This document shows positions 2,089 through 54,423 of a stretch of 64,000 bases of DNA, piece by piece (the stretch's first letter is position 1; every line of letters starts with the position of its first letter). The DNA comes from Schmidtea polychroa (lineage: Eukaryota), in contig CM097885.1 of the NCBI GenBank assembly GCA_044892525.1, forward strand, positions 10,976,001 through 11,040,000, written 5' to 3'. The notes under the pieces are model-generated. The model did not search any database. It saw only the letters and a program-made list of their open reading frames with translations, and was not told the origin of the DNA. Made by a program: the position numbers and the translations under genes.

Positions 2089-2159
<71 letters not shown>

Positions 2160-2620: not shown

Positions 2621-2623
2621 TGT

Positions 2624-3157: not shown

Positions 3158-3175
3158 TATTATTCATAGAGGTTT

Positions 3176-3802: not shown

Positions 3803-3871
3803 TTTTAATATTTATTTAAAAATTAATTTTGTTTATATCGTAAAGAATAAATTGATTTAATTACTCTATAA

Positions 3872-4565: not shown

Positions 4566-4576
4566 CTCTATAATAT

Positions 4577-4619
<43 letters not shown>

Positions 4620-4644
4620 TTGATTTTTTAAATATTCAGTAGAA

Positions 4645-5157
4645 ATGTTGACAAATATTAATTATAGAGGTCGTGTGTCTTTGGAAACTGTTGGTATGAT
4701 GAATTTCCCCAAGTGTAAACCACAACAATATGTTGACAAAACTGGAAAATATACTATTATATTTTTCAAAAATGGTAAATGTCGTATAATGGGTTGTAAG
4801 AAGCCTATCGAATTCGAGAATTTGCAATATAATATCAAAGATATTCAAGTTCAAAGTCTTACTATAGCTACCAAGGTTGAACAATCTATTAATTTGAATA
4901 ATTTAGCAAAGTTATTAGATGGAGATTGTATATATGAGCCTGAATTATTTCCCGCTCTGCGTTATACAAAATATAATCCACTATGTGTTAATATATTTTC
5001 GAGTGGTAAAATAGTTGTACTAGGTATTAAAAATTTAGATTTTCATACTATTGTTGAAGGAATTATAAACGATGTAAAGGATTTGATTGGATCTTTAACA
5101 ATTTCTTCAAATATAAGTAACGAGGATTTGCTTGAATATTTATTCAACAATGATTGA
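4645..5157 (+). CDS. Divergent TATA-binding-protein (TBP)-like protein encoded by the Polinton
   Basis: Two TBP repeats: NIN...IIFFKNGKCRIMGCK and IQVQS...INLNNLA...IYEPELFPALRY...VNIFSSGKIVVLGIK. Intact ORF with no N-terminal extension. Confidence 0.88.
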   Translation: MLTNINYRGRVSLETVGMMNFPKCKPQQYVDKTGKYTIIFFKNGKCRIMGCKKPIEFENLQYNIKDIQVQSLTIATKVEQSINLNNLAKLLDGDCIYEPELFPALRYTKYNPLCVNIFSSGKIVVLGIKNLDFHTIVEGIINDVKDLIGSLTISSNISNEDLLEYLFNND

Positions 5158-5518
5158 ACATGAAGGTAACTGTTTTTATTTTAAATTTACTGATTTTTGT
5201 TTAGAAACTATACTAAAAATTTTGATTGATAAAATTGAAGATTTTTATCCGAATTTGAACAATTCCTTAATGTATTGTGCTCCAGAAGTTGTGTTTTACA
5301 AAATTTATGAAATAACTGGAATAAATGTAATAGATTTAATTCATATGGATCATGCTACGATTACATGTTATACCGATGATGTTGAAAATTGTGATTTTTG
5401 TAAAAATAATATGCAGAATACTTGTGGGGATGATAGTTGTACATGTTTTGTAAATCTACAGAAACGAGAAATAATTCATGCATTACTTGTGGAATTGCGA
5501 AAAAATGTATTGTTGTAA
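5150..5518 (+). CDS. Uncharacterised Cys-rich Polinton protein
   Basis: ATG at 5150 overlaps the TBP stop (ATGATTGA). Contains a CDFC...TC...SCTC cluster. AATAAA overlaps its stop (5517-5522). Confidence 0.65.
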   Translation: MIEHEGNCFYFKFTDFCLETILKILIDKIEDFYPNLNNSLMYCAPEVVFYKIYEITGINVIDLIHMDHATITCYTDDVENCDFCKNNMQNTCGDDSCTCFVNLQKREIIHALLVELRKNVLL

Positions 5519-5678
5519 TAAAATATAATTATATTTGTTTTGTGATAACCTTAATTAACCTATAATATTTCTTTGTGTACAATAAATCATTTCAGACTTT
5601 GTTATTTAGCATAAAATGAACTAGTTGATCACGTTTTGATCATGCCTGTCACTTGAAACTTGTTTACAATGAAATTAG

Positions 5679-5685
5679 TATAAAA
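5679..5685 (+). promoter_or_regulatory. Candidate TATA box of the three-exon gene
   Basis: TATAAAA ending 35 nt upstream of ATG 5721; the AT-rich background lowers specificity. Confidence 0.35.
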
Positions 5686-5720
5686 TATCTGGTTCAAATT
5701 ATTAAATATTATAACTACAA

Positions 5721-6315
5721 ATGGATAATCAAATTACAGGTTTGTTGTCGTTTACACATATTCCATTTAGTAGTTTTTTAATCTAGGAGTTTTGAAGAGA
5801 AAAAATGCAGATGCCGCTCAGGAATTCGGAAAAAGGAAATTTAAAGAAGCGACATTATCCACGGAAACCTTGGTCAATGTTCGAGTGGATACAAAAAAGC
5901 CAGTCGAATTCATGCAATACAAACTAAATTATTTGTATTGTCCAATTTCCTATACATTTAAGGTAAGTTTCTATAAATTATTTTGGATTTTATTATTATT
6001 ATTATTTATTGTTAGGAACCAGTAACTCTGGAAAAATGTTTCTACAATGTGAGACTTTCCAAAATCAAGTTTCACGACAAGATGCTATTGGGACAATTAT
6101 TTCAGAGGATCAATGAAAATATTGAATTTGATGATGAAGATATGTTCATTAGAAACGATTTGGATATGATTCCCAATGGTGGTAAGATGAGCAAAATAAC
6201 CTGCATGGTTACCATATTAATTCAAGGGTATAATGTAAGCAGAGACCGAATCAAACCAATTTGGAAAATTATAAAAGCCGAAGATAAGTTTGAAGAGGAA
6301 CATTGTTCATGTTAA
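5721..6315 (+). CDS. Three-exon Polinton gene (exons 5721-5739, 5787-5962, 6016-6315; 164 aa), possibly an OB-fold ssDNA-binding protein
   Basis: Introns 5740-5786 (GTTTGT...TCTAG, 47 nt) and 5963-6015 (GTAAGT...GTTAG, 53 nt) join ATG 5721 and ORFs 5792.. and 6049.. in one frame with no stops. The product assignment is inference only. Confidence 0.75.
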
Positions 6316-6387
6316 ATTTATTTAATACATCTTTATTAGTGTTTTGGTGTTTTTAAATCATTGAAAATAACTAAAGTTTTAAATTTA

Positions 6388-6778
6388 TTAATCTTCAATA
6401 CAATCTCTTTTCATTATATTTTCAACAATATGATCAATACAATTAGTAAAAACAATAGATTCATCTTCTTGTTTAGATTCATTTGGTAATTTATCTGTTG
6501 TAGAATTCTCAATACATGACTTAAGTTCTTCACTAGGCAAATCAGTATATTCATCTTCTTGCTGGGAAATACTTTCAGATTCATATGACATATCATCTTC
6601 ATTAATTTCATCGTCTGAATACGGCCATTTTAATTTCTCTGGAACATTCATAAATTCTCTAATTTTTACATTAGATATTTCCTCTAATTTTTCAATCAAA
6701 AAATTGATTATATATGCTAAATAAAAAAAAAAAAAGAATTAATAAACATAAAATTCATATTTTACCTTTTTCCGACAT
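6388..6778 (-). CDS. Two-exon acidic Polinton protein (exons 6778-6766 and 6716-6388; 113 aa)
   Basis: ATG TCG GAA AAA G|GTAAAA...TTTTATTTAG|CA TAT ATA: a 49-nt intron (6765-6717) supplies an ATG in frame with ORF 6388..6699. Confidence 0.65.
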
Positions 6779-7132
6779 GGTTGAAAATAATTAAAATGAA
6801 AAAATAATTATGTTTATACTATTATTCAAAAGCAACAAGATGATCGATAGATAGATTATAAGAAAATTAGATATTTCAACACGATACATATAATAAAAAG
6901 ACAAGCAAACTTGCAATGATATTTAACGTTTCAGTTTTTACATTTTTTAAAATATTTATTTCAATTATTTCAACAACACAAAAGTGTCAATTTTTTTACT
7001 AATTAATTTTCAGCCTAACCTACAACTTTTCACAAAAATCCAAAAAAAAAAAAAAAAAAAAAAATGAGACCTTTTTAATGAACCATTATTCAATATAATC
7101 TATCGAAAGTAATCCTTAAAATTCAAATTTAA

Positions 7133-7656
7133 AATGTTCGCAAATGTAAAGCATGTTCAATGTATATTAATGAGTATCATACTATAAACATTTATTTCTT
7201 TACCTTTGTTATTAATACTTTGAATATTGTAAATAATAAAACTATGTATCAAATAATAATATTCAAACTAAACCAAATTTACAAACTACCGCGCCAGCCC
7301 CTTCGGGGCGGGCGGCGGACGGGCGGACGGGCGGCGGGCGGCGGGCGGCGGGCGAACGGCTGTTGTGTATGTTACATTTGTAAAGAAAATCAAGTATCGG
7401 TTTTGTTTTTACCTTGCGGACATGTAATTGTATGTTCTAAATGCCATGATTCAAATGTTCGCAAATGTAAAGCATGTTCAATGTATATTAATGAGTATCA
7501 TACTATATACATTTAATAAATATTTATTTCTTTACCTTTGTTATTAATACTCAAAATAATATTCAAACTAAACCAAATTTACAAACTACCGCGCCAGCCC
7601 CTTCGGGGCGGGCGGCGGCGGGCGGCGGGCGGGCGGGCGAACGGCTGTTGTGTATG
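7133..7656. repeat. Imperfect tandem duplication (about 300-320 bp period) containing the RING 3' end and a GC-rich island
   Basis: AATGTTCGCAAATGTAAAGCATG... occurs at about 7133 and 7454; CCGCGCCAGCCCCTTCGGGGCGGGCGG...GAACGGCTGTTGTGTATG occurs at about 7289 and 7589. Confidence 0.85.
7360..7516 (+). pseudogene. IAP/MDM2-type C3HC4 RING finger fragment; N-terminus lost by rearrangement
   Basis: CYICKENQVSVLFLPCGHVIVCSKC...CKAC...I; the in-frame upstream sequence is the GC-rich repeat rather than coding-like DNA. AATAAA lies at the stop. Confidence 0.7.
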
Positions 7657-7779
7657 TCGATGATTTTAATTTTTATTAAATTCATTTGTTTGATTTCAAA
7701 ATTAGATTTGTGTGACGAACCTTGTTAAATTTTTGGTTTGATGTATTCGAGGAAAAAAAAAAATTGTAAAACATTCTTT

Positions 7780-7975
7780 TACTATTTAGTTGGAAAATTT
7801 GGGAAAATAGTTTTGAAAACTTTTTAAAATTTGAAAAATTTTGAGTTGGGAAATTTGGGGAATTTCATTTTTGGGACTTTTTAATTTTTGAAAAAATTTG
7901 AGTTGGGAAAATTGTTTTTGGGAATTTTTAAAATTTGGGAAATTTTTGAGTTGGGAAATTTATTTTGGGGATTGA
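7780..7975. repeat. Polinton-internal tandem repeat, about 50-bp unit
   Basis: Three copies of TTTGAGTTGGGAAA with TTTTTAAAATTT-like spacers. Confidence 0.7.
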
Positions 7976-8019
7976 AAGATTTGTTGAAATGATCAATTTA
8001 CAGTTTGAATAAAAATCAA

Positions 8020-8360
8020 AGTTTTTGACACTTGAGGGTAAGGACTCACCATACATCTTTGAAGGTTTGACCATCACACTCTACTCTCAAATACCTTTTG
8101 AATGATGTATATATATTATAAAGTTTGAAAAAATTCGAAATTTTTTGACCCTTTGAAGGTGAAGGACTCACCATACACCTTTGATTGTATGACCATCATA
8201 CTCACATCTCAATTACCTTTTGAATGACATGTATTATAGAGTTTGAAAAAATTCGAGGGATTTGCACCTTTTGAAGGTTAGGGATTCACCATACACCTTT
8301 GAAGGTATGATCATTGTACTCTACTCTCAAATATCTTTTGAATGATGTATATATTATAGG
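8020..8360. repeat. Polinton-internal tandem repeat, about 120-bp unit x3
   Basis: GGA(C/T)TCACCATACA(C/T)CTTTGA...CTTTTGAATGA.GTAT.TATTATA recurs at about 8041, 8163 and 8281. Confidence 0.85.
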
Positions 8361-8369
8361 GATACATGT

Positions 8370-8590
8370 TAAAAATAACTTGACCTACATATTTTTATAA
8401 ACTATATAGTCGTGACCTACTTAATTTGACTTATTTATTTATATAGTGTCCTGGAGGTAACATATATTTAAAGTAACTTGACCTACATATTTTAATACCT
8501 ATATAGTCGTGACCTACATAATTTTAACTTGATCTACTTAATTTTAACTTGACCTACTTATATATATGTGTCCTGGAGGTGACACATCTT
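8370..8590. repeat. Short-motif array (TGACCTAC) running into the truncated PolB 3' end
   Basis: TGACCTAC at 8381, 8413, 8479, 8510 and 8550, plus TGATCTAC at 8530; GTGTCCTGGAGGT occurs twice. Confidence 0.8.
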
Positions 8591-11500
8591 ACTACTAAGG
8601 TTTTTGACACTGATTTTTGAATTCCTTTACTTTTATTTTCTTTATAGCTTTTCGGGTTTTCAGGGAATGAAGGATATTCAAATGTGTGATCTATTTCAAC
8701 AGATCCTTCTCCCTCCCCTATTATAAATTTTATTGTATGCTCTTTCATAATTGGTTTGTCTTTCATTTCAAGAGAATATTGTTTAGGTCTAATAAACACT
8801 CCTCCACTTATTGGAGTATTTGGTTTTTCATCTTTAAAAGTAAATAATTCTCCAGAGTTGTTTATTAATTTATTTAAGGTTTCGTTTTCACTTATTTCCT
8901 TTTTTAAATCTTTACTATGACCTTTTAAAAACATACTATCAGTGTCCATAGCATGCATGGATATTCGATCTCCAAAATGGGGTACTAGAACATCATAGTA
9001 GGTCTCATACATTTGAAGCTTTGAAAGTTCTAAAATTGAAAAGCCTATAAAGATTGGTTTATTATAAGTTTTTACAGAGTTTTTAATCTCTATAGCTATA
9101 AGGTTACTAGAGAATATCTCTGCATTTTTAAATGTAGGCTTTCCAATTATTCGATTATATTTATTAAGATCTTTTGTTGTATTGGTTAAGAGCTCTACAC
9201 GAGTATATTTATCAATATTCTCCATTGTCTTTCCAAAGACTGCATTGTTTAAAAGTTTATAAATCATATCAAGAAAAGCATTTCCAGCTCTCTTTGCTGC
9301 ATTTCGTTTTAAGATATTTCCCTCGATGAATTTTTTCATAAAAGGAGCTTGTCGGAATTTAATTATAGAATGTACTTTTTTTAAAACCATTCCATGTGAG
9401 AGATAAAACTGGAGGAGTCTATAATGACAAAGATAATCAGTTTTATCTGTTTGTCCACATAAAAGTTTTATACATGGTGTTCTATTCTGAGCAATCTGCC
9501 AATCTGATAGTTCTTCAGGAGAGATCTTTCTTCTTACAGGAGCAAATGGAAAATATCTAGTTCTGGATTTTATTTCATTGGGATATTCAAGATCACATTC
9601 TACAACATATCCAAATTGAGAATCTTTTGGTGTTTTTAGAATTTCTTGTATTAATTCCTCAGTGGGTTCTTTCCAGGTGAACTTGCCAATTGGAAGGTAT
9701 TGAGTCATTACTCCCGCATATAAAGCTGTTGCATCTATATACATTATTTCAGAAGGATTAGAAAGACCTTCCATTATTTCCTTACGATCTTCTGGGTTTG
9801 TTATTTCTACATATAGAGCATCAGGATCTTTGAAAAATTTAGGATAAAGAGTTGTAAAATTATTAGCATTTATTTCTCTATTCCCTTGTACTGAAGAAAT
9901 ACCTCCTCTAATATTATGTTTATATACATTAAACATATCAAGCTCAACTAATAATTCAATAGTTTTATTTCTTACTGCTACATCTTCATCAGTCCATATG
10001 GTATATAATAATATAATAATATAGCTAGAGAGGGAGCGGTTATATAATTATAAGGTTTTAATTCAAAAGCTTTTGAAAATGTCTCGAAGCAATCAGCTAA
10101 GATATAAACATCCAAGGAAAGATACATGTCAGTATATTCTCCAAGGTTTCTACAGTTGAATAGATTCCACATTTTAACTGCACGGGAATATTCCTGATCA
10201 GAAATCCCTGATTGTGTTAAAACAGAAAAGAAATCTTCTTGGGGTGGGAGTAATTCATTATATTTTTCAAAGGAGTCTATATAATCATATGGATAGATTC
10301 CTTTTGCTAGACAGGTATTATATTCCTCTAATGGAATATTATTTTTTAATAACACATGTTCTTTTGTATATTTAAAATCCTCAGGGTTCATAGTTTTAGC
10401 AATCCCATCCAAAGACATCCCTAAGAAATTTAACGAGTCCAAAAACTTAAAGCATCCATATTGAATGCTTTTATATTTTTCTTTTGTAAGTCCAATAACC
10501 TTGAAAGAGTTTTTAGCATTTGCGGCCAGATGCTTAATGAATAGGTGAATATCATAGCCAAAAAGATTGTGAAATATAAATGGTATGTGTGTTGGTTTTT
10601 TACAATTGAGATTACATTTTTTATGGGCTGCTCCTCTGTAATTATTTTCTCTTTTAAAATGATCATGGTCTGCAACCTTTGGCTCCTCATCCTCCTCCTC
10701 CTGAATATCAAACTCTTGTTTACACATCCAGCAGTGTGTTGCATTTTTATATTCTTCCTCTTGTTCTTCTGAAAAATTCATAGGAAAGTTGGATTTTAAT
10801 ATTATATATAATTCATGTTCTAGATTATTTAAAGTTTTAACAAAATGATCTAGAGTCTCTTTGTCAGAAGTTCCTCTAAATGAATATTCTCTAGATTCTA
10901 CAAGTTCTGGATAATTACTTTTAAAAAACATTTTATAAGCAGAGGGTAATTGTTTTGTTAGTTTTACAGTATTAGTTTTTGTTCGTCTTAGTTTTACATT
11001 TATAGCTTCAAAATCACAATAAACCACTCCCAATGCTTCTAATAGATTGGAATAGTTTTTAAACCTCATATTAGCATTTTTCTTGTGTGGCATTTTTATT
11101 AAAGCAGGTTGATTCTTACAACAGAGTCTCTCATGTTTAATGGCAGCAAGTTTTGAACTTGAATGATATAAACATCTTTTACAACATATGCCTCCACGAA
11201 TGAGTGTGTTTCCTTTCATAAAACTTTGAAAATTCTTTATTAAGATATAATGAAGTTTTTTATCTAACATAGTGCCTCCGGACGCAGTGCTTTCTGCTTC
11301 TGGTTCTAATGAAATGCCTTCTTCTGCTTCTCTCCTCGGGTGAACGCTTTGAACCTCTTCACCATATTCTTCTCCATCAAAGTCTTCATCTGGTTTACCT
11401 TCTTCTAATATTAAAAGATCTACTTCTCTCTTTTCATCTGAGATTTCCATGTTAGAAATGTAAATAGGAATAATGTGTTTATAATTTTTATTTTTTCTAG

Positions 11501-12527
11501 TTTTTGTAATTTTGGTTGGAATGAATTGATAAATATTAATTTTAAGATTATTTAATTTTTCAAATGCTGGAACATCTTCAATTTTCATTGGGTGGGAAAA
11601 ATCTTTTGGATAAATTAATTCAGATTCATATTCTTCATATTTTTGAACTCTCTGTGGGTTAGTTGCTTGAGGATGTAAGTGTGCAAGTATTGACCATTGA
11701 AAACATTTATTATCTTTATTCTGTACATTTATAACATGGTTGGAGGTGAATGGTGTGTGAATAAAAGATTTAGGATTTGGTGGTGCGCCTCTCCAGTATT
11801 CAATCTCTATATTTTGAAAAGAGTGGAATCTTAAATTAGATTCTCCTAGTTCTTGTTCCACCTGTTCTTGTTTTTCTTCCAATTCTTTAGCTATATCATT
11901 AACAAGTTTATTTCCTGCTTTTGTAGAAAATAAATATTTATATGAGGTTTCAATTTTTACATCTAGAGGCATTGCGATTGAATCATCTCCTCTCCAGTAT
12001 TTTGCATTTCCTGTAAATTTAACTTTTATAACATTAAATCTTGATATACCAAATTTTTTTATAGCATCATCCATTGATGATATTATTTTTTTTTTATTTT
12101 CTCTTATATATTGCATGATTGATCTGGGTCCTCGTTTTACTTCTACAATTACATCGGTGTGATTGAAGTTGTCCCAATTAAACTCTAGTTTTTCAGCTTT
12201 TTCAGTCATTGAGTTTGAATCAGAATCTTTTGCTTCAAGACCACAATCTTCTATGTGTCTTAAGTAAAAAGATTTTATCTTCATCTTTTTTCCACATGCT
12301 GAACATTCGAATATTTCTCTGTTTTTAGGAACTCCAATACAATTTTTGAAATGCTTCTTATAACCTGAAAATAAATATCTATCCTTACATTTAGTACAGA
12401 TTTTGGAATTAGTGTCATCTAGTGTGTTAGCTTTTATTAAATGGTCTTTTGATTTTTTATGAGATGTTAAAGCAGTTTTATTTTTAAAATTTTTTTCACA
12501 AATTTCACAATTGAAAATAGCTTCCAT
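8554..12527 (-). pseudogene. Protein-primed family B DNA polymerase (pPolB); frameshifted near 10000-10020 and apparently C-terminally truncated
   Basis: N-terminal zinc fingers; NKCFQW...HYILIK region; Exo I VYCDFEA; EndoVII-like DHDH...YRGAAH..CN; Exo II FHNLFGYD; KGIYPYDY; Exo III YLSLDV..LAD; polymerase motifs YIDATALY, KLLNNAVFGK and MDTDS. The second frame resumes as TIELLVELDMFN...IRGG. Confidence 0.95.
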
Positions 12528-12687
12528 TTTTAAAAAAATTTTTTGGTTGGATATGATGTTTTGGTTTTGATATTAATTTTTATTTTTTTTAAATCTAAAA
12601 GTGATCAGGCGACCTAGATCATTATGAATTAGGTAATCTGATATTCTTATAACATTAAATCCTTATAACATTAAATCCTTAAGACCA

Positions 12688-12934: not shown

Positions 12935-15900
12935 CTTATACCTATCGAAAGCCCCGAACTTAAACCTTCAAATCTTAAAAATATGAAAGACACCTTCTGA
13001 TAAAGGGAAATCAATGTATGCAACTACATCCACCATAGAAATGACAAGAAATTCCAAAAAAGCCTAGAGGTTAAAGGTAAAACGTAAACCCTTAAGCCCC
13101 CTACCTTGGACCTCATAAAGACGAGAAAAACCAAAATATCGAAAGATACCATGTCCAAAGACTTAAATGATGAGATCTTATATTACTTTGACTTGCGAGG
13201 TAAAATACAGTGCCGTGGATGTCACTATACTTCCTTTTGTGGACAAATTTCTGCCACTGATATTGATAAGATTATATCGCACGCCAAAGAAATCCATAAC
13301 ATCACTATAACCTACAACTCTTTAATTGACTGCCACCAATGTAGACCCAAAGGGGAAGGAAGCAGATCTACTCTGAACACCATAACGCTTAGAAATCTCT
13401 ATAACCATATCGATCAATTCGAGCACCATTGTAGTGTGAGCAAAGACTTTCTTAAAATTATTACCCTAAAAATCGCTTCTTCTAATCGTTTTTTATGCCA
13501 CAACCTGAACAAAAACTGCAACAAATGTTTCCATTCCTTCGACATTGACACACCCTTAGACATAATAAATAGTCATATGGGAAAATACCATAAGAACCTA
13601 AAATTTGATACCAACTTAAAAATTTATTGTTTCTGTGGAAAGTGGATAAAATATCAAGACTCTAAAGATCATATCGAGAATAATCACCCCAACAAGGAGT
13701 ACTCTAATAGCCTCGTGGATAATGACCACAATAATAAAGTAAATATTAATAATAAAAATAACCTTTTTAATGATATTCTGGATACCCAAGAGGCAATCCT
13801 ATCACATCTAAATAACGAAATCATAAATAGAGATATACCTGACAATATCCTATTTACTAATAATATCGATAAGGAGGCTGCATGATGGTCACAGCATTCT
13901 ATCAAGGCCTTCATCTTTTCCTTTACCATCAGACCAACTACCATCTTTGTAGACCCCTATATAGGTAATGCTCTTATACAACACAACTTCAAAACCTTCT
14001 TTGAAACCTTTCCTTTCAAAGACTTTTCTGATTGGAATGAGATCATCATGCCAATGTGCCATGCTAAAGACAATTGGTTTTTCTTCTTTCTAGACAAACG
14101 TCGAAAGCTTGCAGTACTTATTGACCCTACAACTGATGAAAGCCCTTCTGTCCACCTCTCCCTGGCCAATAGCATTCTTGAAACCATCTTAGATCTACAG
14201 AAAATTGTCTCTTCTATTAATATCCATCTTCAATACCCTGAATATCCTAGATGCAGCACTCCTAATGAGTCAGCCTTTTTCGTATGCCACATGATTGAAT
14301 GCCTCATGAAAAATGATAGAATTACCTCTCCTAACATCCAGAATATGATTAATAGAATAAAATTTATCATTAACAAAATATTAAATAATAGAATGGCTAG
14401 TGATGATGTGCGAAAATATCGTCCATTATTCAATAGTCTTATAATTAATCTAAATAATGATACAACAGACTGTGAATCAGTCCTTTGTGAAATTAATAAA
14501 ATAAATGAAAACATTAATCCAAAAAAATACATTCATAAAATTCCTGCAGACATCACCCATAAAATGAGAAAAAATGCCAATGAACTACTAATTATTAAAA
14601 GAAATAGGTATAAGTTTAATCCAAAGGAGGAAATAACCAAAATACTAAATAATGAAACCAGTTTTCAAAAGCCTACTATGAAAAACCTTCTAAAACTCTT
14701 TGCAGGGACATAGCCAGCTGTCAAACTTTCTCTATAAACCTTCAATGCTCATATCCTGAAACTTACTCCTCCACTCCATTTGACCTTGATGATATTAAAT
14801 ACATCCTGTCCCAACTTGAAAACACTGCCCCTGGTCTTGACCTTATCACTCTTGCTAACTGGAAGAAAATATCGCCAGATCATGAACTAATCTTATCCAT
14901 ATGCAACAATATCCAACGGAACTCTGTATGCCCATCCTCTTGGAAAACCTTCCGTACTAAACTTATTCTTAAAGCTGGGAAAAATGAAATAAGCCATGAA
15001 GCCAGCTCATGGAGACCTATATCCATTATGAATACCATTTATCGTATCTTCTCTTCTCTCCTCAACAATAGGCTCCTGGGGTGGATCAAGGAAGGTAACC
15101 TTATCTCTAACAATCAAAAAGCGATTGGTGCCCCTGATGGCTGTGCAGAACACAACTTTATCCTTCAACTTATTAAAGATGCCTCTAATCGCAACAAGTC
15201 TGATCTACATATTATATGGCTAGACATCACGGATGCCTTTGGTTCCTTGCCGCATGACCTTATCTGGTACACATTATCTAAAATGGGTCTTCATCCAAAT
15301 TCCATCCAACTTATTAAAAACATGTACGACTAAGTTAACACTATCTTTGACTGTGAAGGGGAAACATCGCCATCTGTTCCAATTCTTAAAGGGGTAAAAC
15401 AAGGATGCCCCTTATCTATGACTCTCTTTTGTCTCTCAATAGACTTCATTATTAAAAACATCCTAATCTCTCATCCTTTTATACTAGGAGAAATGAATAT
15501 AGGTATCCTCGCATACGTTGACGACATAGTACTTATACCTGACTCTTACTCCTCAATCAACTCTGCTCTCCTTGAAACTATTCGCCTTGCTTCACTAGCT
15601 AACCTCAAATTTAAACCTTCTAAATCTGGCTACTTTCATCTTAACCATAACTCAAATTACCACCCCATAAAACTATATAACGAGATCATTCCTAAGGTAG
15701 ATGACTCAAACTTTTACAGATACTTAGGAGTTGACTTCTCCCTCAAAAAAAGACACAATATTGATGAAACACTTGAATGTGCTCTCAAGGATACTGAGAA
15801 AATCCTCAAATCACACCTTCACCCATCCCAGAAAATTAATGCCTTTAAAATCTTTATCCACTCGCGTCTTATCTTTCCTTTTCGCAATTGTGAAATACTC

Positions 15901-17150
15901 CACAACATTCTTGAATCCCATAAAAACAACATCATAAAAGATAAAGACCCACAAAAAGGCTTCGATAATAAGATTAGAAAAATAATAAAAATCGCTCTCG
16001 GAGATCGACTACTCCAAATAAATAATAACTTCCTTTATGCCTCGATAAAAATGGGCGGAATGGGTCTCACCTCAGCCATTGATGAATATATAATTCAAGG
16101 CATTGTACACCTCTCTCGTGCACTAAACTCCACCGATACATCCTTCCGCAATCTTATCCTCTCAGAACTTACGTTAGCAAGAGGCCAAGGCAATCTTGAA
16201 GCAGCTCTTTCCTGGATCAATGGCAATACTTCGAAACCATTCCAACACCGCTCAATATTCCTAAAATTTAAAAAATCTGCTGACCTACTTCGTCGGAAAT
16301 ATGGAATTCACGCTAAAATCCTCCTCCTAGACAACTTATATCAACTCGAAATCCGATACAAAGACAGAATAAATTACTTTCATAACGACAACGTTAACAC
16401 TATCTCCTCTGAAATTCATTCCATTATTGGCCTCATGCACGCTGAAAAATGGACTCGTCTAACGCACCAAGGCCATATTGCAAAATTAATTTGTAATAGC
16501 AGCACAGCTGGCTACCTCATAAAAACTGATATTCTTACTGATGCCCAATTCTTCTTCCTTATCAGGGCACGTAATAACCTCTTAGAACTAAACTTTACGC
16601 CCCATAGACTTAAAACCAAAAATCTATACAATGTAGACATTGTAATTCACACCCTGAAACCCAAGCGCATATCTTTAACCACTGTCCAGCAAAGATAAAC
16701 GCGCGTAGAAACAAACACTCTCGTGTCCTGGATGCCGTCTGTGAATTTCTCTTTAACCTTAACTTCTATTTAGATGTTGAAATAACACCTCTTGGTATAC
16801 CCACTCTGCTCAAACCTAACCTTATTAAAAGATCCGTAAGGAACAACAACAACCACATCCGGGATATTAAAGTCCCCTACGAACAGTGGGAAAACTTTAA
16901 AAGAGTGACCAATGATAACTATGCAAAATATGCTAATTTAGCTATCCAAATTGAAAAGGCACATAAAGTTAAAACCACCATCTCCGCACTTGTAATCGGC
17001 ACCCTTGGCTCCTGGGACTTTAACAATGACCAGATACTTAGCAAAATAGGACTTTCTAAATCTGAAATTAAAGGATTGTCACAGAAAGCCTGCACAGCCG
17101 CAGTAGTGAGTAGCTACCACATACTTAGAGAACATACTCTTAAGGATTAA
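12935..17150 (+). mobile_element. Degraded NeSL/Utopia-clade (RLE-type) non-LTR retrotransposon: Zn fingers, Ulp1-like domain, RT, CCHC, restriction-like endonuclease
   Basis: RT motifs APGLD, SSWRPISIMNTIYR, QKA..DGCAEH, WLDITDAFGSL, KGVKQGCPLS, AYVDD and YRYLG; CRHC...ETQAHIFNHC; KPNL...DIKVPYE and GTLGSW. Multiple stops and frameshifts. The 5' boundary is approximate. Confidence 0.85.
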
Positions 17151-28306: not shown

Positions 28307-29164
28307 GTTATTATTGCTATATTGTTTTTTCATACAATGTAATATTTTATTTTATATTTCAATTATTAGCTTTATTATTATTACTGATATTTATCCCAAA
28401 AATTTAGTATTTTCTAAAAGCGGCATATTCAAAGATTATGAATGTATCAAAACCTAAATTGTCATTACTTTTAGAAGGTGATATCGTTAATTCGTAGCGA
28501 TTTAAACAAAAAGTAATAAAATTGACTCGAAAGTAATTAATTTCACTTCTAAGAAATTTTTATTTATAACAATGTCAGAAAGATATTTTCTTCAGTTTAA
28601 ACGGCGCGTTTCAAAGTTTCTTTAAAATAAAATATATAATTTTAAATTAATATTTGATTTAAGAAATTTCATCTCGATTCAGAATCACTTTTCAATGCCA
28701 CTTTTTATTTTTTAGAGTTAATTTTTGTAACATTTCATTTGATTTCTTCAAAAATTTCAGAGAAATGGAAAATAAAATTAAAAAATCCCCAAATATTTTG
28801 TCAATTTTCAGAGATCTTTGGCACAATAATTGACATGAGTTTTTATCATTTCAGTTAATAGTAGTCAGGATTCAGGGCAATACTGATTTTTTCAGGCTTC
28901 TAGAGTTGACAATGCCCATTATGAATTATTATTTTTAAATATTATTATAATTTTTATAGAGTGTAACAAATAACTGATGAATTTTCTTTTCTTTGTAAAA
29001 ATATTATCACAAGCAGAAAATTGGAACAAAGCTTTGAAGATCAACGTTGAAATTTTAAAATTATAGAAAGAAAAAAACAAATGTTTAAAGTTTTAAATTA
29101 TACAGTTTTTATGAATGATTGAATTTTTATTGTCGATATTAAATAATTTGTAATATAAACATTT

Positions 29165-29587
29165 GAAGCTTTCTGAAACCCAGTGCAAATTCCAATAGTA
29201 GACTAGTTTTGAGTTTTTGGCTCTCATCAGAACTATGCAGGAGACGCAAAGATTTCTCTCCGCGCCAGGTAAGTATACAACATTGCTGATTCAACTCTAT
29301 TGCATACTTTACCTGCTACACTGGAAATCACATGACTTGCAAATTAGCTAAAACATAGAAAAGATATCTGCAAACTTGTAAACATGGCATATGAAAAATC
29401 ATATTCGCCTCTGGAGACACCGTCTACAGACAGAAACTGTTTTCAAGTGCATCCGTAAACCTTTAGCATTTTTAACTTGTAATGGTGTAAAATTTATTTT
29501 ACGGATGTCTAACATTAAAATAACATAAACATTACAAGCTTTGTGATAACCAGTGCAAATCCCAATAGTAGACTAGTGTCGAGCTTT
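29165..29587 (-). mobile_element. Hammerhead-containing tandem repeat (retrozyme or Penelope-type), about 1.1 units, 370 nt between cleavage sites
   Basis: Reverse-complement homologue of 31873-32365; GTC cleavage triplets end at 29571 and 29201. Confidence 0.8.
29195..29236 (-). ncRNA. Minimal type I hammerhead ribozyme, mutated (GAAA to AAAA)
   Basis: ATAGTT-CTGATGA-GAG.CCAAAAA.CTC-AAAA-CTAG-TC-TACTAT. Confidence 0.7.
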
Positions 29588-31205: not shown

Positions 31206-31879
31206 TATAATAATAATAACTAATAATTAATAATAATATTAATTAATAATAATATTAATTAATTAATGTTTAGCAAAACAAATCTCACAATGCCAATAAA
31301 AGCGCAAGATCATATTTCGGGCCTAAGCGTTATCAAAATTATGATTAGTTTAAGTAGCTGTTGTTTATTCATGAACAAGTCTTTGGGAGAGGGAAATTAT
31401 CGGTTTACCTATTTGCCTTAAGATTAATCTCGAACCCACTTTAATATTTCAATTTTATTTGGATATTGTCAAAACGATGGGCGATTGTCAATAATAATAA
31501 TAATAATATTTTGCTTCTCAATTACAAATATTTATGACTCAACTTAAATTTTGGTTTGTTTACCAACGAACGTGCACAATAAACAAATTTCACGGGAGTG
31601 GTGATCTAGATGTCTTTCTAGGACTATTTCCAAATGAACTTGATTTGTAAATTCGAAAAGATTTTAGTAAGAAATTAATGAAATGGTTGGGAAAAATACA
31701 GATTTGTCATTATTTTAAATATGAACTGCGTCTTAGTGATTCTTAAACTTTTTATAGTCACAGCCGCCTAATAACTATATATTTTTTGCGGACCGCAATC
31801 TTTTATTATGTATATTTTTTATAAAAATCGATTTTTAACAATTTACTTTTAAGAGACAAAGTATTTTATTTTCTCCTGC

Positions 31880-31921
31880 ATACTACTGACGAGAGCCAAA
31901 AGCTCGAAACTAGTCTACTAT
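31880..31921 (+). ncRNA. Minimal type I hammerhead ribozyme with intact catalytic core
   Basis: ATACTA-CTGACGA-GAGC.CAAAA.GCTC-GAAA-C.TA.G-TC^TACTAT; palindromic ACTAGT stem III; predicted cleavage after 31915; one mismatch in stem I. Confidence 0.85.
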
Positions 31922-32227
31922 TGAGATTTGCACTGGGTATTACAAAGCTTGTAATGTTCATCCGTAAAAAAAATTTACACCATTACAAGTTAAAAATGCT
32001 AAAGGTTTACGGGTGCACTTGTAAACAGTTTCTGTGTATGATGGTGTCTCCAGAAGTGAATATGATTTTCCATACGCCATGTTTACAAGTTTGCAGATAT
32101 TTTTTCTGTGATTTAGCTAATTTGCAAGTGATGTGATTTTCAGTGTACCGGGGAAAGTATGCAATAGAGTTGAATCAGCAATATTGTACACTTACCTGGC
32201 GCGGAGAGAAATCTTCGCGTCTCCTGC

Positions 32228-32269
32228 ATAGTACTGATGAATGCCAAAAACTCGAAACTAGTCTACTAT
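32228..32269 (+). ncRNA. Minimal type I hammerhead ribozyme, stem II degraded
   Basis: ATAGTA-CTGATGA-ATGCCAAAAACTC-GAAA-CTAG-TC^TACTAT; perfect 6-bp stem I; predicted cleavage after 32263. Confidence 0.75.
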
Positions 32270-35235
32270 TGGGATTTGCACTGGGTATCACAAAGCTGGT
32301 AATGTTTATATTATTTTAATTTTAGACATCCGTAAAAAAATTTTACACCATTACAAGTTAAAAAAGTTGAAATTGTTAAATTTGTTCTTATCTATATGTA
32401 TTTGTGAACTTCCGCCTAAATTTCTAACCCATCTGTTAAAAATCACTGTATCATGTGATATTTAATTTAAGGCTTGTGTATTTTTATATTTTATAATTTT
32501 TATAATTTTTATTTTATATTTTATAACAAATTTATTTGATCAAATTTAATGAAATTAAATTTATAATTTTATTTAGAATATTTAAACATACTTTTATTTC
32601 TTTCATGTTTTTAATTTAAAAAATTATTTTATTTCTCATATTTCATTTTTTATTGTTTAAATTTAAATTTAATTATTTTAATTAAAAGTTATAAATTTAC
32701 CGATTAATTTAAAATATCTATCTGACATTGAAGGAAATTTTAAGGTTTTTCTTGTGGTGAGGAATTTTCGTATACAAAAACTTTTTATAACATTAGTAAA
32801 TACATAAAATGATAGATGATTACCCTTCTTAAACCGGGTAAAATGTTTTTTATTTATCAATTCTTTGTTAAAATAATTTTTTGCAATTTTTTCTGGGCTG
32901 GTGGCAGAATTAGATTAGAACTGTATGGACGCAAAGTGTTAGGCAAAAGTGCTAAAATTTTAATTTAAAAAAATTCAGAATTTGATATATTTATATAATA
33001 TTTATTGAGATTCACATAAATTTCGAAAATTAAATAATTATTAGAATTTCTGCAAGAAATATTTAAACCAATGTATTTTTAAAATAGTGCATTTACAAAA
33101 TAAATTAATAATTAAAAAGAAATATTAAGTAAAAATTAATTGTAAAATTTTAATTTAATTAAATAAATCACAGAAAGACACACAGATCTTGTAAGTTTAA
33201 TATGTTATACCTATCAGTTGGTAATAAGAATAATAATAAGAAGTAGAATAATTGAATCTGCTGTAAGTAGACAATTTGTTCGTTAAACTCACGTGACAAG
33301 TTTTTGGTTGTATAAGAATTTATAACATCGTCAAAGCGCAATTAAGTAAAAAATGTATACTGAATTTTAATTTTATTGGATGTGAATAAATGTTGATGTA
33401 TTTTTCTTGTGGTTCTGACTGTATGAGACTAATAAGAATAGGTACATACATCAGCCAGTGTTCACGTTTTTCTGCTTATAGGAGATTTAATTTGGAAATT
33501 GTGTATCAGCAACATACACCACGTGACCATCTCCATTAAAAATGGCAGTGTGTGCATCCAAGAATATTAATAAGAATTCTATATCATCATTAAAAACTTT
33601 TCCCAGGTGTTGCATTCTCATATCCACAAGACAGTTTGGAAATTTTGAGGATCAAAATGTCAAATAGAGATTGGCTTTTTCCAAGTCATTCATTTCATAA
33701 ATAATTGAACTGTAAAAATTGGAGCGCAAATAACAGAAATTTGAATTTTGCCTTAATTAGCAGAATATAGATAAAGGAGACAAAAGAGGATTTACAAAAC
33801 GTAAAACGATTACAGAAAAAGAATTAAAACAAGAAGATACTCAACTAGATAAACAGCTTGTGATAGAAAAACTAATATTGTTTTCAAATTGATAAATTTT
33901 GGGTTCTGCCTGCAAAGTAACTGATGCCATTGATCATATTATGTAGGTTATTCTATTGAATAAAGAGAACGAAGAGTCAGTACTTGATTTACTATGGTTA
34001 TTCATTACAAATATCTAACAATACTTTTAGCTGCTTCAATTATTTTTAGCATGCTGAATTTAGTTTACACTTTACCTCTCCGTTGATTTATCAGAATAAA
34101 TAAGTTGCACAAACCTCTCATATACTCGAGCTACCTTCATTTCCTCAATTAGTTCAACTCCTCTCTAAAGTTGTCTTCTCAATTGTATTTTCTTTTCTCA
34201 TGTCATCAATTTCTTTTAAGATTGAAGATCCACATTCTTTCTTGTGGACATAAAACCTACGCAGGTAACAGTAATGACAATATATCTTTGTAAAGTCTTT
34301 TATCTTTTCCCCATTCATTGACTATTTTTAATTGATTCTCTCTTTAATTTTTTAAAACTATAGGTCAATTAATTCTAATTAAGTCTTATAAAAATTAAGA
34401 AAATTAAAACATCCTTAGTCTCACTTTATTATATAGGTTCAAATATCATAAATTTTAGTTTCCTAATTTTCTGTTTAGTTTTAGTTACTATTTCATTTTA
34501 CCTTTTACTTCCTTATCTTTTATCTGTTTTCATTTACCATTTCATTTTACTGACATTGGTGCCCACCTTATTATTGACATTAGTGCTATAATTAAAGTCA
34601 GTTATAATTATATATTTCTATAAGGATGTGATAAAACCGTATAAATTTACAATTTAACATTCACAAATTTTTGTATGAAATTAAAAATAATTTTTCTTAA
34701 TCAAACATTTGTCTGTAAAGAACTGTACAAAATCTATATTGTATGACCTTTATTTGACATACACAAGGATGACTCAAATTTTAAACAACACACATCAATA
34801 CGCCTGTTTAATATATGATTGTATTTAATGACAAAATAATATGACGTCTCAAATTTTATACAATGTACATTGTAAGATTAATGTAATATTGCATTTTTTA
34901 CTGATTTATTTAAAAGTTTCATTGTATAAAATATTATCTGTAATTCTATTTTTCATAAATTTATCCCTTTCATGCAACCATCCACTATTTACCAATAATT
35001 TATTTATTCCTCATATATATATATATATATATATGAATTTAATTACAATATAAATTTTATTTCAATTCATATACTAATAACATGAAATTATCAACAAATT
35101 TAACAGTAATTGATAAAATACTTTTGACAAATTTATTTATAAAATAATTTCTTTTAATAAAATATTTTTCGAAATTTTATTTCAGTTGAAACCTCACGCT
35201 ATAATTTTTTATATTAAATTTACAATAAAAAATTA

Positions 35236-49853: not shown

Positions 49854-50085
49854 TATGAGGAAGTTTTATGATGAAGAAATTTTTAAATTGAAAATTTTAA
49901 AAATTAAATTATAGATTAATTTTTAAAAAAGAAATAAGAAGATATTTTAATTAAAAATATTTTTGTAGAAAATTTGTTTAAATAAGAAAGTTTAAAGAAG
50001 ATATAATTTGATACTGATATTTACTGAAATAAAATTATGGAAACAAAAACTGATTTTAATGTTTTACAGGATGAACCTCCTAATA
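49854..50085 (+). repeat. 5' LTR (232 bp, TA...TA ends)
   Basis: TATGAGGAAGTT...AACCTCCTAATA, direct repeat of 54191-54423. Confidence 0.9.
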
Positions 50086-51131
50086 TGGTGGCAGCGGTAA
50101 ACACTGACGCAATCACCGAAAGATTGCTACCAAAGGTATTCTGCCAAGGTGACGACTTGGAAAAGTTCATTAAAAGATGCGAAATTTATTTCGACGCCAA
50201 GGGAATCACGCAGAAGAAAGATCAGGAAAGATTAACATCTTGCATGATTGATGAGGATCTCCTGGAAGTGTACGCCAAAACACTGAAAAAAGCCGAAGGA
50301 TTTCAGGCTAGGTTGCGATTGGCATTCGATCGCGAAAGAGATGTTTTAAAGGATCTACAAAACTTGTTGAATTACAAGCGGAAGGGTGAAGAAATAGAAA
50401 CGTATTTTAAAAAGGCGGAGGACCTTGTTGATAGGTTGTTTGAAAATAAAGAATTTACCAAAGAGAAATTAACAGCAAGGGTGTTAATAGTATGTGCGGA
50501 GAATAAAGAAGTTGAGAAAGAAGTGATACTACGGAAGATAAAAAGCACAGAAGAAATAAAGGAAACACTAACTCTGATGGACAAAGTAGACAAGCAAAGA
50601 GATCAGATAAACAGTATGAAAAGTTACGCCAGAGTGGTCTATCAGGAACCACAGGGAAGAGTACAATACAAGAAGAAAGAACAGAGAGAAGAAAGTATCC
50701 GAAGAGAAATGCCAGAATGCTGGTTATGCCACAAAATAGGACAAACGAAAATTGATTGTCCAATAAAAGGTAAAATAGAATGCTGGACATGTCATAGAAG
50801 CGGACATATAAGTAGAAACTGTCCAGATAAAAAAGCTCCAAGATGTTTTGGGTGTGGGAAAGAAGGTCATATAAGAAGATTGTGTCAGGAAATACGTTGT
50901 GAAAGATGTAGCAGAAATGGTCATAGATCCGAGGAGTGTTATACAAAGATGAGGTACGGGAGAGCGACGGAGAGACAAAGATTCACGGGAAACAGATACA
51001 GTCGGATAAATTGTATCGAGGAAGAAGAAGAAAGGGAATCGTGTGTAGAGACAAATGAAAATAATTTTAGGAAGACGTACCCAAACAACAGGGATCCACC
51101 AGTAGAGGAGTTGGTTGGAGCCATATTCTAA
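50037..51131 (+). CDS. gag: Gag with four CCHC zinc knuckles (first one degenerate)
   Basis: CWLC...QTKIDC, CWTC...HISRNC, CFGC...HIRRLC and CERC...HRSEEC. The start is either ATG 50037 inside the LTR or ATG 50085 overlapping the PBS. Confidence 0.88.
   Translation: METKTDFNVLQDEPPNMVAAVNTDAITERLLPKVFCQGDDLEKFIKRCEIYFDAKGITQKKDQERLTSCMIDEDLLEVYAKTLKKAEGFQARLRLAFDRERDVLKDLQNLLNYKRKGEEIETYFKKAEDLVDRLFENKEFTKEKLTARVLIVCAENKEVEKEVILRKIKSTEEIKETLTLMDKVDKQRDQINSMKSYARVVYQEPQGRVQYKKKEQREESIRREMPECWLCHKIGQTKIDCPIKGKIECWTCHRSGHISRNCPDKKAPRCFGCGKEGHIRRLCQEIRCERCSRNGHRSEECYTKMRYGRATERQRFTGNRYSRINCIEEEEERESCVETNENNFRKTYPNNRDPPVEELVGAIF
50086..50098 (+). promoter_or_regulatory. Primer-binding site, tRNA-Leu-like
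   Basis: TGGTGGCAGCGGT directly after the LTR, complementary to the ...ACCGCUGCCACCA 3' end of tRNA-Leu(AAG)-type tRNAs. Confidence 0.75.
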
Positions 51132-51155
51132 CAGAAAATTTGATGGGATATCCTC
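51080..51155 (+). promoter_or_regulatory. Candidate -1 ribosomal frameshift signal (gag-pol)
   Basis: C CCA AAC heptamer in the gag frame; the -1 frame is open from just upstream into pol. Downstream stem GGATCCACCAG/TTGGTTGGAGCC; loop GAGGA is complementary to TCCTC at 51151-51155. Confidence 0.6.
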
Positions 51156-54100
51156 AAGGGGCAGAAAAGTGGGAGAATGTTGGAAGGATAAGCGAGAAAG
51201 TATACAGGTTCCTAAAGAGAGAAATGTTTGAAGAGGAAGTGGAAAGAATTGGAACCATTGAAACGGAGCAGGTTGTTGAAATTTTGTATAACAGAATGCA
51301 AGGAAGGCCTAGTATAACAGTAAGGATGAATGGGGAAAATTTCGACTGTTTATTAGACACTGGGGCAAGAATCAATGTAATGAGTGTGAACTGTTTCAAC
51401 AAGCTACGAGGACAACAATTGACGAAAAGTGACGATAAGTTATGATGCGCAAACGAGAGTACGATCGAGACAATAGGAAAAACGAAGGTGCAAGTAACCA
51501 TTGGAAATGTTTCGAAGGAAGTTATATTCATTGTGGCGGAGAAAGTGACACCAGACGTGATTGGAGGAATCGAATTACAAGAAACATTTGGATTTAGACT
51601 GTTAAAAATTAAAGATATCGAGGCTAGTGAAAAAGACAAGAACTATATTTGTAACATTGAAGCAAAATTTGGCAGAAAAATAAAGGATGAAGAACGATTG
51701 ATACGAGCGTTGGAACAGTTAAAGATCAATGAAGATAGCAAATTAAAGGAAATTATAACAAACAGTGGAAACGTGTTTATGGCAGATAAATGGGATGTGG
51801 GTCGCACACATTTGGTAAAACACAAGATAGTTACAAGAGGTGAGTCGATAAACATAAAACCATATCGCCAACCACTAAATTTGGAATCAAAACTTGAAGA
51901 AGCAATACAAAATTTGTACGAAAATGGAATTATACGGAAATGTAACTCTCCATGGAATACACCGCTAATATGTGTATGGAAAAAAGAGAAAAAGGATATT
52001 ATACTATGCTTGGACTTTAGACACCTGAACGCGGTAACAGAGAGGCAGCATTTCCAATGCCAAACATAGACGAGATGTTGGATTTGTTAGGAGGATCCGT
52101 CTTTTTCAGCTCAATCGATCTAGGTAATGCATATTACCAAGTGGAACTAGAAGAAGAATCACGGGAGAAAACAGCTTTCTCAACAAAGAACGGACAATAT
52201 TGTTTCAACAGAATGCCATTTGGAATTGCAGCAGCACCAGGTACGTTCCAAGAAATGATGACAAAAGTATTAGGCAAAATAAAGGGAGCAATGGTGTATT
52301 TGGACGACATCTTGATTTATTCAAGCAGTAAAGAGAAACACTATACAATACTCGGAGAAGTGTTAAAGGCGATTGAGGAAGCAGGCCTAAGGATTAATCC
52401 AGAAAAATGCCAAATAATAAAGGGAGAAATCAGATTCTTAGGACACATAATCAGCAAGGAAGGAGTACAGACAGATCCATCTAAAATTCAGGCCATACAG
52501 AACTTTGGGAAGCCTAATTGCGTAAAGAAACTCCGAAGCTTTTTAGGTATTTGCAATTATTATAGAAGATTCATCAGTGATTATGCAAAGAAGGCAAGGA
52601 TGTTATAACAATTATGTAGCGGACCAAGTAACAAAAAATTAGAATGGAGTGAAGGAACGAATAGCGTGTTTGAGGGATTGAAATTAGCACTCACGACGGC
52701 GCCAATCTTATGTTTTCCGGATCTGAAAAAGGAGTTCATTTTAGATACCGACGCTAGTTTCGATACCATTGGAGCAGTACTTTCACAAAGAGATAAAGAT
52801 GGAAAGGAAAAAGTAATTGCGTATGAATCACACTCGATGACGAGCCACGAGAAAGGATATTGTATTACAAGAAAGGAACTTTTGGCGGTATATTATTTTT
52901 GCATTCATTTTAAGCACTATCTCTACGGAAGAAGATTCACGCTCAGGACAGACCACAAGGCAATCACGTTTATGATGACAAACAAGAAGCCGATTACTTC
53001 ACAATTCCAAACATGGATCAATTATTTGAGCAGTTTAGATATAAGAGTAGAATACAGAAAGGGTATTAATCACCAAAATGCAGACATGGTATCGAGAACT
53101 AAATGTGACACGTGTGTTCAATGTCAAATGGCCCACGAAGAAGCTAAGAAAGGAAAGATAAAAACCAGATTACTAGACTCGATCAGAGAAGAAGGAAGAA
53201 GCAACATCCAACATGGAATTGTAGAAGTACGAAAGAAAACGATGATACCTGAAAATGAGTTACAAGAAACAATAAAGGAAATACATAAACTATTGTGTCA
53301 TGCTGGAGTCGAGAAGATAGCCGATTATATGAAAGATAGATATGTTGGAAAACACCTGTGGAGTCAGATTCAGGAAATTGTTCGAAGTTGTGAGATTTGT
53401 CAAAAAACCAAGGCTTTAACAATAACAACGAAAGAACCAGTAAAAAAACAAGATTCGAAGGAAATGTTCGAAATTATATTCGTGGATATATGTGGACCGT
53501 TGACAGAAACCAAAGGATGTAAGAAGTATATATTGGACATAATAGATCAGTATAGTAAGTATCAAGTCTTAACTGCGATAACAAAACAAAACGAAGAAAC
53601 AATAAAGAAAACGATTTTAGAAAAGTGGATTTTAAGATTTGGATGCCCAAAGGAGATAAGAGTTGATTGCGGAAAGGCGTTTGAATCAGGAATGATGAGA
53701 GAATTCACAAAGATGCTAGATATTAAATTATGTTTTTCGAGTCCATACTATCACCAAAAAAACGGTCAGATAGAAAGACAATTCAGGACAATACGGGATT
53801 TGATAAATGCTACTTTACAGGATAGAAAGAAGACGGATTGGGCAGAGATATTACCAGAAGTCGAATTCACTTTAAATGCAACCAAACAAAAAACGACAGG
53901 GAAAAGCCCGGCAGAGATAGTTTTTGGAAAAAAGATTAGCAGGGAAAAATGGTACGGGTCCAAAGAAATGCCGATAAAGGAAGAACTAGAAGAACAAACA
54001 AGGAGAAAATTCAATGTAGGAGAAGAAGTATTAGTAAAAGTAGAAACACGCCACAAAGGCCAGGACAGGTATGAAGGTCCGTACAAAGTGATAGATAAAG

Positions 54101-54195
54101 TGCATGACAGACAATACATCTTAAGAAATGAAGACGGAAAAAGGATCGAAAGAAATGTGGAAAAACTTTATAATTTCTTAAGAAGGGGGATATGA
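51087..54195 (+). pseudogene. pol: Gypsy pol (protease, RT, RNase H, integrase) with stops at 51443 and 52606 and a frameshift near 52045
   Basis: LLDTGA; YLDD; TDAS...ELLAV...TDH; H..LCH...CEIC; VDICGP, VDCG and IERQFR; GPY motif. Confidence 0.93.
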
Positions 54196-54423
54196 GGAAG
54201 TTTTATGATGAAGAAATTTTTAAATTGAAAATTTTAAAAATTAAATTTTTTATTAATTTTTAAAAAAGAAATAAGAAGATATTTTAATTAAAAATATTTT
54301 TGTAGAAAATTTGTTTAAATAAGAAAATTTAAAGAAGATATAATTTGATACTGATATTTACTGAAATAAAATTTATGGAAACAAAAACTGATTTTAATGT
54401 TTTACAGGATGAACCTCCTAATA
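54180..54423 (+). repeat. Polypurine tract (54180-54190) and 3' LTR (54191-54423)
   Basis: AAGAAGGGGGA immediately precedes TATGAGG; the LTR is followed by TSD ATATT. Confidence 0.9.

Follow-up and report, generated by a model that had tools for sequence, protein, structure and literature searches.

A Schmidtea polychroa retrozyme that carries U1 snRNA-derived sequence beside its hammerhead ribozyme

We found that an abundant short repeat in the genome of Schmidtea polychroa is almost certainly a retrozyme carrying sequence derived from U1 snRNA. The analysed window, a stretch of 64,000 nt, contains two insertions of this repeat, insertion A at 31872-32364 on the plus strand and insertion B at 29587-29151 on the minus strand. 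A U1-derived self-cleaving retroelement was one of the readings offered in a preliminary description of this DNA, and it is supported by a match that reaches nt 16-19 of host U1 and by the retrozyme nature of the unit. Our tentative best explanation is that the U1 piece and a promoter-like motif at -68 may be used together as an snRNA-type Pol II start cassette.

Anatomy and copies of the repeat

The units are 348-383 nt long, occur singly or in tandem (periods of 348 and 383 nt) and have no LTR or ORF. Insertion A comprises about 1.4 units, is 5'-truncated and bears two hammerheads 348 nt apart, with cores at 31886 and 32234. The first (31881-31920, plus strand, predicted cut after 31915) is of type I with a short palindromic helix III; it has one mismatch in stem I, and the U1 motif is missing from it through the 5' truncation. 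The second (32224-32280, plus strand, predicted cut after 32263) has an extended stem I, and its stem II is broken at 32241-32253 by private changes. In insertion B (29151-29587) the core carries the change GAAA>AAAA, so that both U1-bearing copies of the window have damaged hammerheads. Among 168 distinct copies sampled from the genome, the family-type core and stems are fully intact in 51. Behind the second cut follows the tail of insertion A (32264-32364), the region where the 3' ends of the family form two clusters.

The hammerhead has the canonical metazoan type I layout, and such ribozymes with a short palindromic helix III are described as working as dimers (accessible part of PMC4209133). 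The family hammerhead, including the first one of insertion A, matches RF00163 under the gathering score (27.4 bits, E 3e-4, gathering score 34), and Rfam at its gathering scores gave 0 matches across the window. The predicted monomer from cut to cut (31916-32263, 348 nt) is strongly self-paired as a circle, at -94.2 kcal/mol, and the circular fold of the monomer from locus L077 has a z of -9.6 against 60 shuffles. Three features of retrozymes are thus found here, namely the type I hammerhead with a short palindromic helix III, tandem and dispersed units of 150-450 bp that lack LTRs and ORFs, and, in the computed fold, a highly self-paired monomer. To judge from its sequence, the anatomy of the repeat fits that of non-LTR retrozymes (PMC7229834).

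The exact 16-mer of the U1 motif occurs 1081 times in the host genome, and reversed controls occur 0 times. The first 30 of these 1081 loci all belong to this repeat, including the copy in the window and three units of one array. Both orientations of the 16-mer are equally common genome-wide (543 vs 538). A hammerhead-anchored pattern gave at least 1428 core matches in the host genome, and the 100 listed form one family. A pattern for divergent U1-hammerhead families with another stem II start gave 3 matches in the host genome, two from the same family and one by chance. In a metagenome pattern scan with at least 116 matches, the 11 listed after the stem filter were without a hammerhead.

Other elements share the window. 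At 91-12572, mostly on the minus strand, lies a Polinton/Maverick-like element with a type B polymerase (PF03175), an integrase (PF00665), several broken frames and an A32-like ATPase (PF04665) that stays below the cut-off per stretch. A non-LTR retrotransposon at 13088-17150 (plus strand), which we take to be NeSL/Utopia-like, has RVT_1 matches interrupted by stops; by eye, and with no Pfam match, a cysteine-protease-like region lies upstream and a restriction-like endonuclease downstream. An LTR element at 49854-54386 (plus strand), Gypsy-like as judged by eye from its ORFs, is bounded by 196-nt direct repeats of 95% identity.

Identity of the U1 motif

The repeat family is identical to host U1 over 16 nt, and the two window copies match it over 17 positions. 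In insertion A the motif lies at 32188-32204 (plus strand) with a private T2>C change, and in insertion B U1 nt 1-17 are exact at 29276-29260. The 13-mer reported earlier was recovered accordingly, exact on the minus strand at 29276-29264 and with the same single change at 32188-32200. Alignment to host U1 beyond nt 13, a check proposed with it, showed that the match reaches nt 16-19, where it breaks off immediately before the ribozyme module. In 3000 dinucleotide shuffles of the monomer the longest U1 5' prefix was 9 nt, and the longest piece from any part of U1 in 1000 shuffles was 13 nt, compared with 16 nt observed. Since the match extends past the donor-pairing nt 1-11, we infer descent from U1 and not convergence on a donor; the piece likely originated when the start of a U1 gene, or a U1 5' end, was captured.

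The host genome (781 Mb) has 42 U1 matches over the Rfam cut-off. One host U1 class is identical to the motif of the repeat family over its first 16 nt, and one variant, of a tandemly arrayed class, agrees with the repeat at 18 of 19 nt. The repeat has no U1 sequence after nt 19, so that the stem-loop I and Sm regions are absent, and RF00003 found no match in the window. A U1 snRNA gene or variant was rejected as an identity for the repeat, as stem-loops I-IV and an Sm site were not found and the similarity ends at nt 16-19.

The host U1 genes deserve mention in their own right. The arrayed class, which agrees with the retrozyme at 18 of 19 nt, is a divergent U1 in about 30 tandem copies with a period of about 1.77 kb (L041-L050, C4, about 74.00-74.06 Mb); U2 and U4 of the host also stand in long tandem arrays. 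Further U1 variants over the Rfam cut-off have changed 5' ends (L034, L036, L038 and L039 on C1, 78.8-80.8 Mb; L035 and L040 on C2). One class has C9>T and another T6>A, both with T2>A, inside the donor-pairing region, and each of these variant genes has its own upstream region. From their sequences, these classes may read non-standard donors.

The preliminary description had also raised the possibility of an antisense reading, in which the motif serves as a used 5' splice donor. The antisense strand does read as a perfect donor, and Penelope-like elements (PLEs) are described as able to carry introns (PMC4209133, in part). Selection on a donor, however, covers nt 1-11 only and leaves nt 12-19 of the match unexplained, and no joint or loose end was found at the donor position among the 15 of 195 and 16 of 52 loose ends listed. 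The equal orientations of the 16-mer are uninformative on introns. A plain antisense donor is therefore unsupported, and we consider it extremely doubtful.

The U1 motif within the folded module

The length of 76 nt from the start of the motif to the cut (32188 to 32263) was borne out, as was a GAAA-capped stem of 9 bp, which becomes 10 bp once G11-C34 is counted. This hairpin (32198-32221, plus strand) overlaps U1 nt 11-17 and is a frequent site of 5' truncation. The C>T change of the other window copy is compatible with pairing, as a G-U pair is kept. The earlier view of a U1 match and a hairpin directly upstream of the hammerhead thus holds, although it missed a long hairpin upstream, of which the motif forms the 3' strand. 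This pairing takes up 10 of 11 positions of the motif in the predicted monomer fold, the partner being the 5' arm of the hairpin at 32148-32187 (plus strand), in which subfamilies differ at -40, -38 and -35. In the predicted fold of an RNA starting at U1 +1, nt 1-10 are free and a helix follows.

TTGCACT lies just past the cleavage site, at 32276-32282, as described. Its reading as a U1A-binding loop is not supported: it matches the U1A loop at six of seven positions, and the reading falls because the word is located beyond the cut and the predicted folds place it in a helix, TTGCAC being the distal 3' strand of stem I in the second hammerhead of insertion A.

Insertion ends and a possible Penelope-like partner

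Insertion ends were read from 83 hammerhead-bearing copies in 68 loci. The 3' ends fall into two clusters, at +119 to +131 (42/83) and +150 to +173 (31/83) counted from U1 +1, which together hold 73 of the 83. An AAT/AT run directly adjoins 34 of the 80 ends that fall inside the reference, compared with 19 of 272 background spots. The 5' ends are scattered and often inverted: 59 of the 83 copies extend upstream past the motif, 12 stop in the GAAA hairpin and a single one starts at U1 +1, which makes the U1 piece internal and not a SINE-type head. In the whole genome, differences at both -2 and -1 were seen in 8 copies, 3 of them being true edges, and a control at -5 gave 2 matches with 1 true edge. 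Neither the 83-copy sample nor this genome-wide test shows a pile-up of 5' ends at U1 +1. An snRNA-headed SINE of the SINEU type was rejected on the same counts of 5' ends, and also because the 3' ends abut microsatellites and not polyA.

PLE-mobilised insertions are marked by a pair of fixed 3' ends, by 5' ends that vary or are inverted, and by AT-rich or microsatellite targets. A PLE signature, according to the accessible text of PMC11167929, is RT initiation at two internal points that leaves a tail of 30-40 bp, and retrozymes have been proposed to be non-autonomous PLE derivatives (bioRxiv 10.64898/2026.07.22.740005, in part). As judged from sequence, the insertions of the repeat show Penelope-type ends, and their two 3'-end clusters fit this tail.

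The host genome has PLE-type ORFs of 776-856 aa. In 50 PLE loci, taken from 150 scored among 2572 GIY-YIG candidates, no pLTR sequence common to the repeat and a PLE was found. The retrozyme hammerhead pattern was not found in these 50 loci, one pLTR having a variant core by eye, and the similarity between the tail of the repeat and one PLE is not significant (P 0.27-0.56). Three of the 50 loci hold independent insertions of the retrozyme repeat. As a separate observation, three PLE loci (L334 on C2 at about 183.47 Mb, L333 and L335), with ORFs of this size, have a terminal repeat in which a hammerhead with a variant TTGACAA core can be seen by eye, along with two 3' ends and AAT-run junctions.

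A founder or autonomous partner could also have inserted 16-19 nt into a U1 gene, as R2- or Keno-like elements do, to be co-transcribed with it while the ribozyme trims the leader. The beginning of the match at exactly +1 and its abrupt stop before the ribozyme module would suit such a relic of a target site, and U1-headed Tx1 families and target co-transcription are described in PMC4494074 (in part). Present insertions, in contrast, abut AAT/AT runs at the frequency given above, host U1 upstream sequence is found in 0 of the 8 copies with foreign-looking -2/-1 positions, and the idea accounts for the origin of the piece and not for its retention. We regard it as very unlikely.

At one locus (L277:1085-1110) foreign sequence takes over from a retrozyme unit at U1 +2, and an 8-nt piece of the motif recurs in it 14 nt later. 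This single case is possibly an insertion at the candidate start site.

Conservation within the host and in a related species

The preliminary description had named conservation of the 13-mer as the test that could refute its claim, and the outcome is divided. Among genomic copies conservation is flat, with 0.962 for the 13-mer and 0.957 for the body in the 32 best copies (rank 203 of 343 windows); across subfamilies and species it favours the motif. The flat value is uninformative, as the copies are decaying insertions, for which it is expected.

Subfamily variants, defined as minor alleles of at least 10% among 168 copies, are absent from the 16 positions of the U1 motif and from the 70 of the ribozyme. 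The arm that pairs with the motif has them at 3 of its 16 positions, and the sequence further upstream at 50 of 255 (indels counted per column). The whole block from -29 to +104 is low in variants, and constancy of the motif within the species is therefore not special. Because of this quiet block, and because about 40 of the sampled loci had been chosen by the U1 motif, low variation within the species is weak evidence.

The comparison with a related species, organism B, appears to be the stronger one, as far as sequence can tell. Here 51 contigs of run X20 were aligned, 34 of them less than 90% alike; the evidence consists of short loose-end consensuses with an agreement of 0.61. These contigs align mainly from 32183-32190 to about 32290; 5 of the 8 pieces listed begin at 32183-32190, and the depth across U1 +1 climbs from 4 to 474. 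No change of at least 15% is seen in 32190-32203, and changes are seen at 32215, 32216, 32220, 32225, 32247 and 32248; one contig has a change at U1 nt 9. The upstream arm has other letters in organism B, and its loose ends, by eye, again form a hairpin that reaches the motif.

The letters of the GAAA hairpin also vary in organism B with the pairing kept. At two pairs (32203-32216) three states occur: G-C/A-U in the host, tandem G.A in most aligned contigs of organism B, and U-A/C-G, the reversed Watson-Crick form, in six loose ends. In these sequences this looks like compensatory change caught with its intermediate. Run X15, labelled organism B, carries both hairpin types, and the organism B type has 0 matches in the host genome at up to 1 mismatch. 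Contigs from presumed-RNA runs cover the unit and cross both the cut site and U1 +1.

These data bear on whether the piece is a passenger. A U1 5' fragment could have been captured once by RT template switching, could be kept only as part of the folded module and could be transcribed by read-through. The pairing of the motif in the predicted monomer, the flat conservation among 32 copies and the quiet of the entire -29 to +104 block all agree with this, and template-switch addition of U1 pieces has been proposed for SINEU (PMC4494074, in part). A structural helix, however, should drift on both strands, and what changes is the partner arm and the neighbouring helices, while the U1 strand mostly does not. 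The promoter-like site at -68 would moreover become a coincidence at P of about 0.01-0.02. We consider a mere passenger rather unlikely.

A promoter-like motif at -68

The U1, U2, U4 and U5 genes of the host have in common an ATGCAAA-like word about 70 nt upstream, most sites of this class lying at -69 to -71. A 9-nt model built solely from 14 upstream regions of host snRNA genes scored 94.8 in its own band and 58-74 in five shifted bands. When the whole unit was scanned on both strands, its top site in both subfamily representatives lay at -68 on the sense strand. In insertion A this candidate snRNA-type promoter motif, a post hoc one, is at 32120-32128 (plus strand), and in insertion B at 29344-29336 (minus strand). 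Its core, TTTGCAAG, has no subfamily variant of at least 10%; positions -70, -68 and -59 do vary.

The shuffle P of the site is 0.005-0.024, for a site noticed by eye before the model was fitted. Because of this, because an unanchored motif fit was noisy and did not rank -68, and because the 14 training promoters are not independent, the match to an snRNA-type promoter element is no more than suggestive. TGCA words are common in the unit, and no wider similarity of the unit to any host snRNA upstream region was found. The starts of host U1, U2, U4 and U5 share little past the first base or two, and initiation alone therefore does not explain why 16 nt were kept.

Proposed mechanism

We infer the start, cleavage, circularisation and PLE partner of the retrozyme as follows. 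Each unit would be a cassette of promoter, U1 start and ribozyme. Pol II would initiate at U1 +1 and continue across the array, and hammerheads would cut in pairs via the short palindromic helix III, yielding a 76-nt leader and unit-length monomers. The monomers would circularise and fold the U1 tip back into the hairpin. The RT of a Penelope-like element would begin at two internal points to copy monomers or multimers, and every full unit would thereby re-seed promoter, start and ribozyme.

As initiation does not obviously need 16 fixed letters, the passenger reading and one based on pairing in trans stay alive. In the latter, the tip would be kept for its pairing, and the 76-nt leader or an opened monomer would bind 5' splice sites or tether the RNA to nascent transcripts, which is compatible with a start cassette. 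The predicted RNA from +1, with nt 1-10 free and then a helix, resembles U1 in this respect, and the constraint on the U1 strand looks sequence-specific, which initiation alone leaves unexplained. Against this, there is no U1 sequence past nt 19, so that stem-loop I and the Sm region are lacking, the predicted monomer hides the motif in a helix, and the flanks show no enrichment of donor-like words. An insertion bias near donors, which the preliminary description had suggested looking for, was not seen: the flanks of 109 loci contain 0.22-0.40 donor-like 7-mers per kb and controls 0.40-0.43, in a crude count made without gene annotation. Overall, such U1 mimicry seems unlikely. A more elaborate form, in which the retrozyme poses as a U1 gene for transcription, the ribozyme frees a capped 76-nt mini-U1 that pairs with host donors, and the circle hides the tip, would amount to a switchable decoy produced from more than 1000 loci; this we hold to be decidedly improbable.

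Relation to known systems and significance

Metazoan non-LTR retrozymes (PMC7229834; bioRxiv 10.64898/2026.07.22.740005) resemble the repeat in their tandem and dispersed units of 150-450 bp, type I hammerhead, low GC, lack of LTR and ORF, self-paired predicted circle and the presence of PLEs in the genome. In contrast to the U1 retrozyme with its U1 piece and predicted promoter, the accessible parts of these papers, by term counts, mention no snRNA-derived piece and no promoter belonging to the element. The U1 retrozyme further differs in that no pLTR homologue was found among 50 PLE loci and in that its circle is a predicted one.

The newt satellite 2, a tandem repeat of about 330 bp with a hammerhead, is transcribed into RNAs of unit length (PMC2114352, in part), and an internal snRNA-type Pol II promoter has been reported for it (cited in PMC2220036, in part). 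It is alike in combining a hammerhead tandem repeat with an snRNA-type promoter, which in the U1 retrozyme is only predicted; in the latter, actual U1 coding sequence marks the candidate start.

SINEU and the U1/U2-headed Tx1 elements also have U1 5' sequence built into a mobile element. In these, according to the accessible text of PMC4494074, the U1 piece is a 5' head of a polyA-tailed, LINE-mobilised element in which no promoter was found, whereas in the U1 retrozyme it is 16-19 nt long, internal (59/83 copies run upstream of it) and placed beside a hammerhead. The pLTRs of PLEs likewise have their hammerhead close to the 3' end and two 3' ends some 40 nt from each other; AT-rich targets and inverted, 5'-truncated partners are further common traits (PMC4209133 and PMC11167929, in part). 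The U1 retrozyme differs from them in having no ORF and in that its hammerhead is of the canonical metazoan type and not a min-HHR. The preliminary description knew of no U1-hammerhead chimera, and none was found in the literature by title or start of abstract, in a search with most subscription journals outside its coverage.

The animal retrozyme papers cited above, in their accessible parts, do not say which promoter drives these elements, and the newt satellite 2 is the one precedent found. For the U1 retrozyme the prediction is exact to the base: transcripts should begin at U1 +1, the promoter element should lie at -68, and the leader should measure 76 nt. The related species gives a comparative control for the predicted start. 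Should pairing prove to be the reason why the U1 tip is kept, there would be a direct link between splice-site recognition and a repeat of very high copy number.
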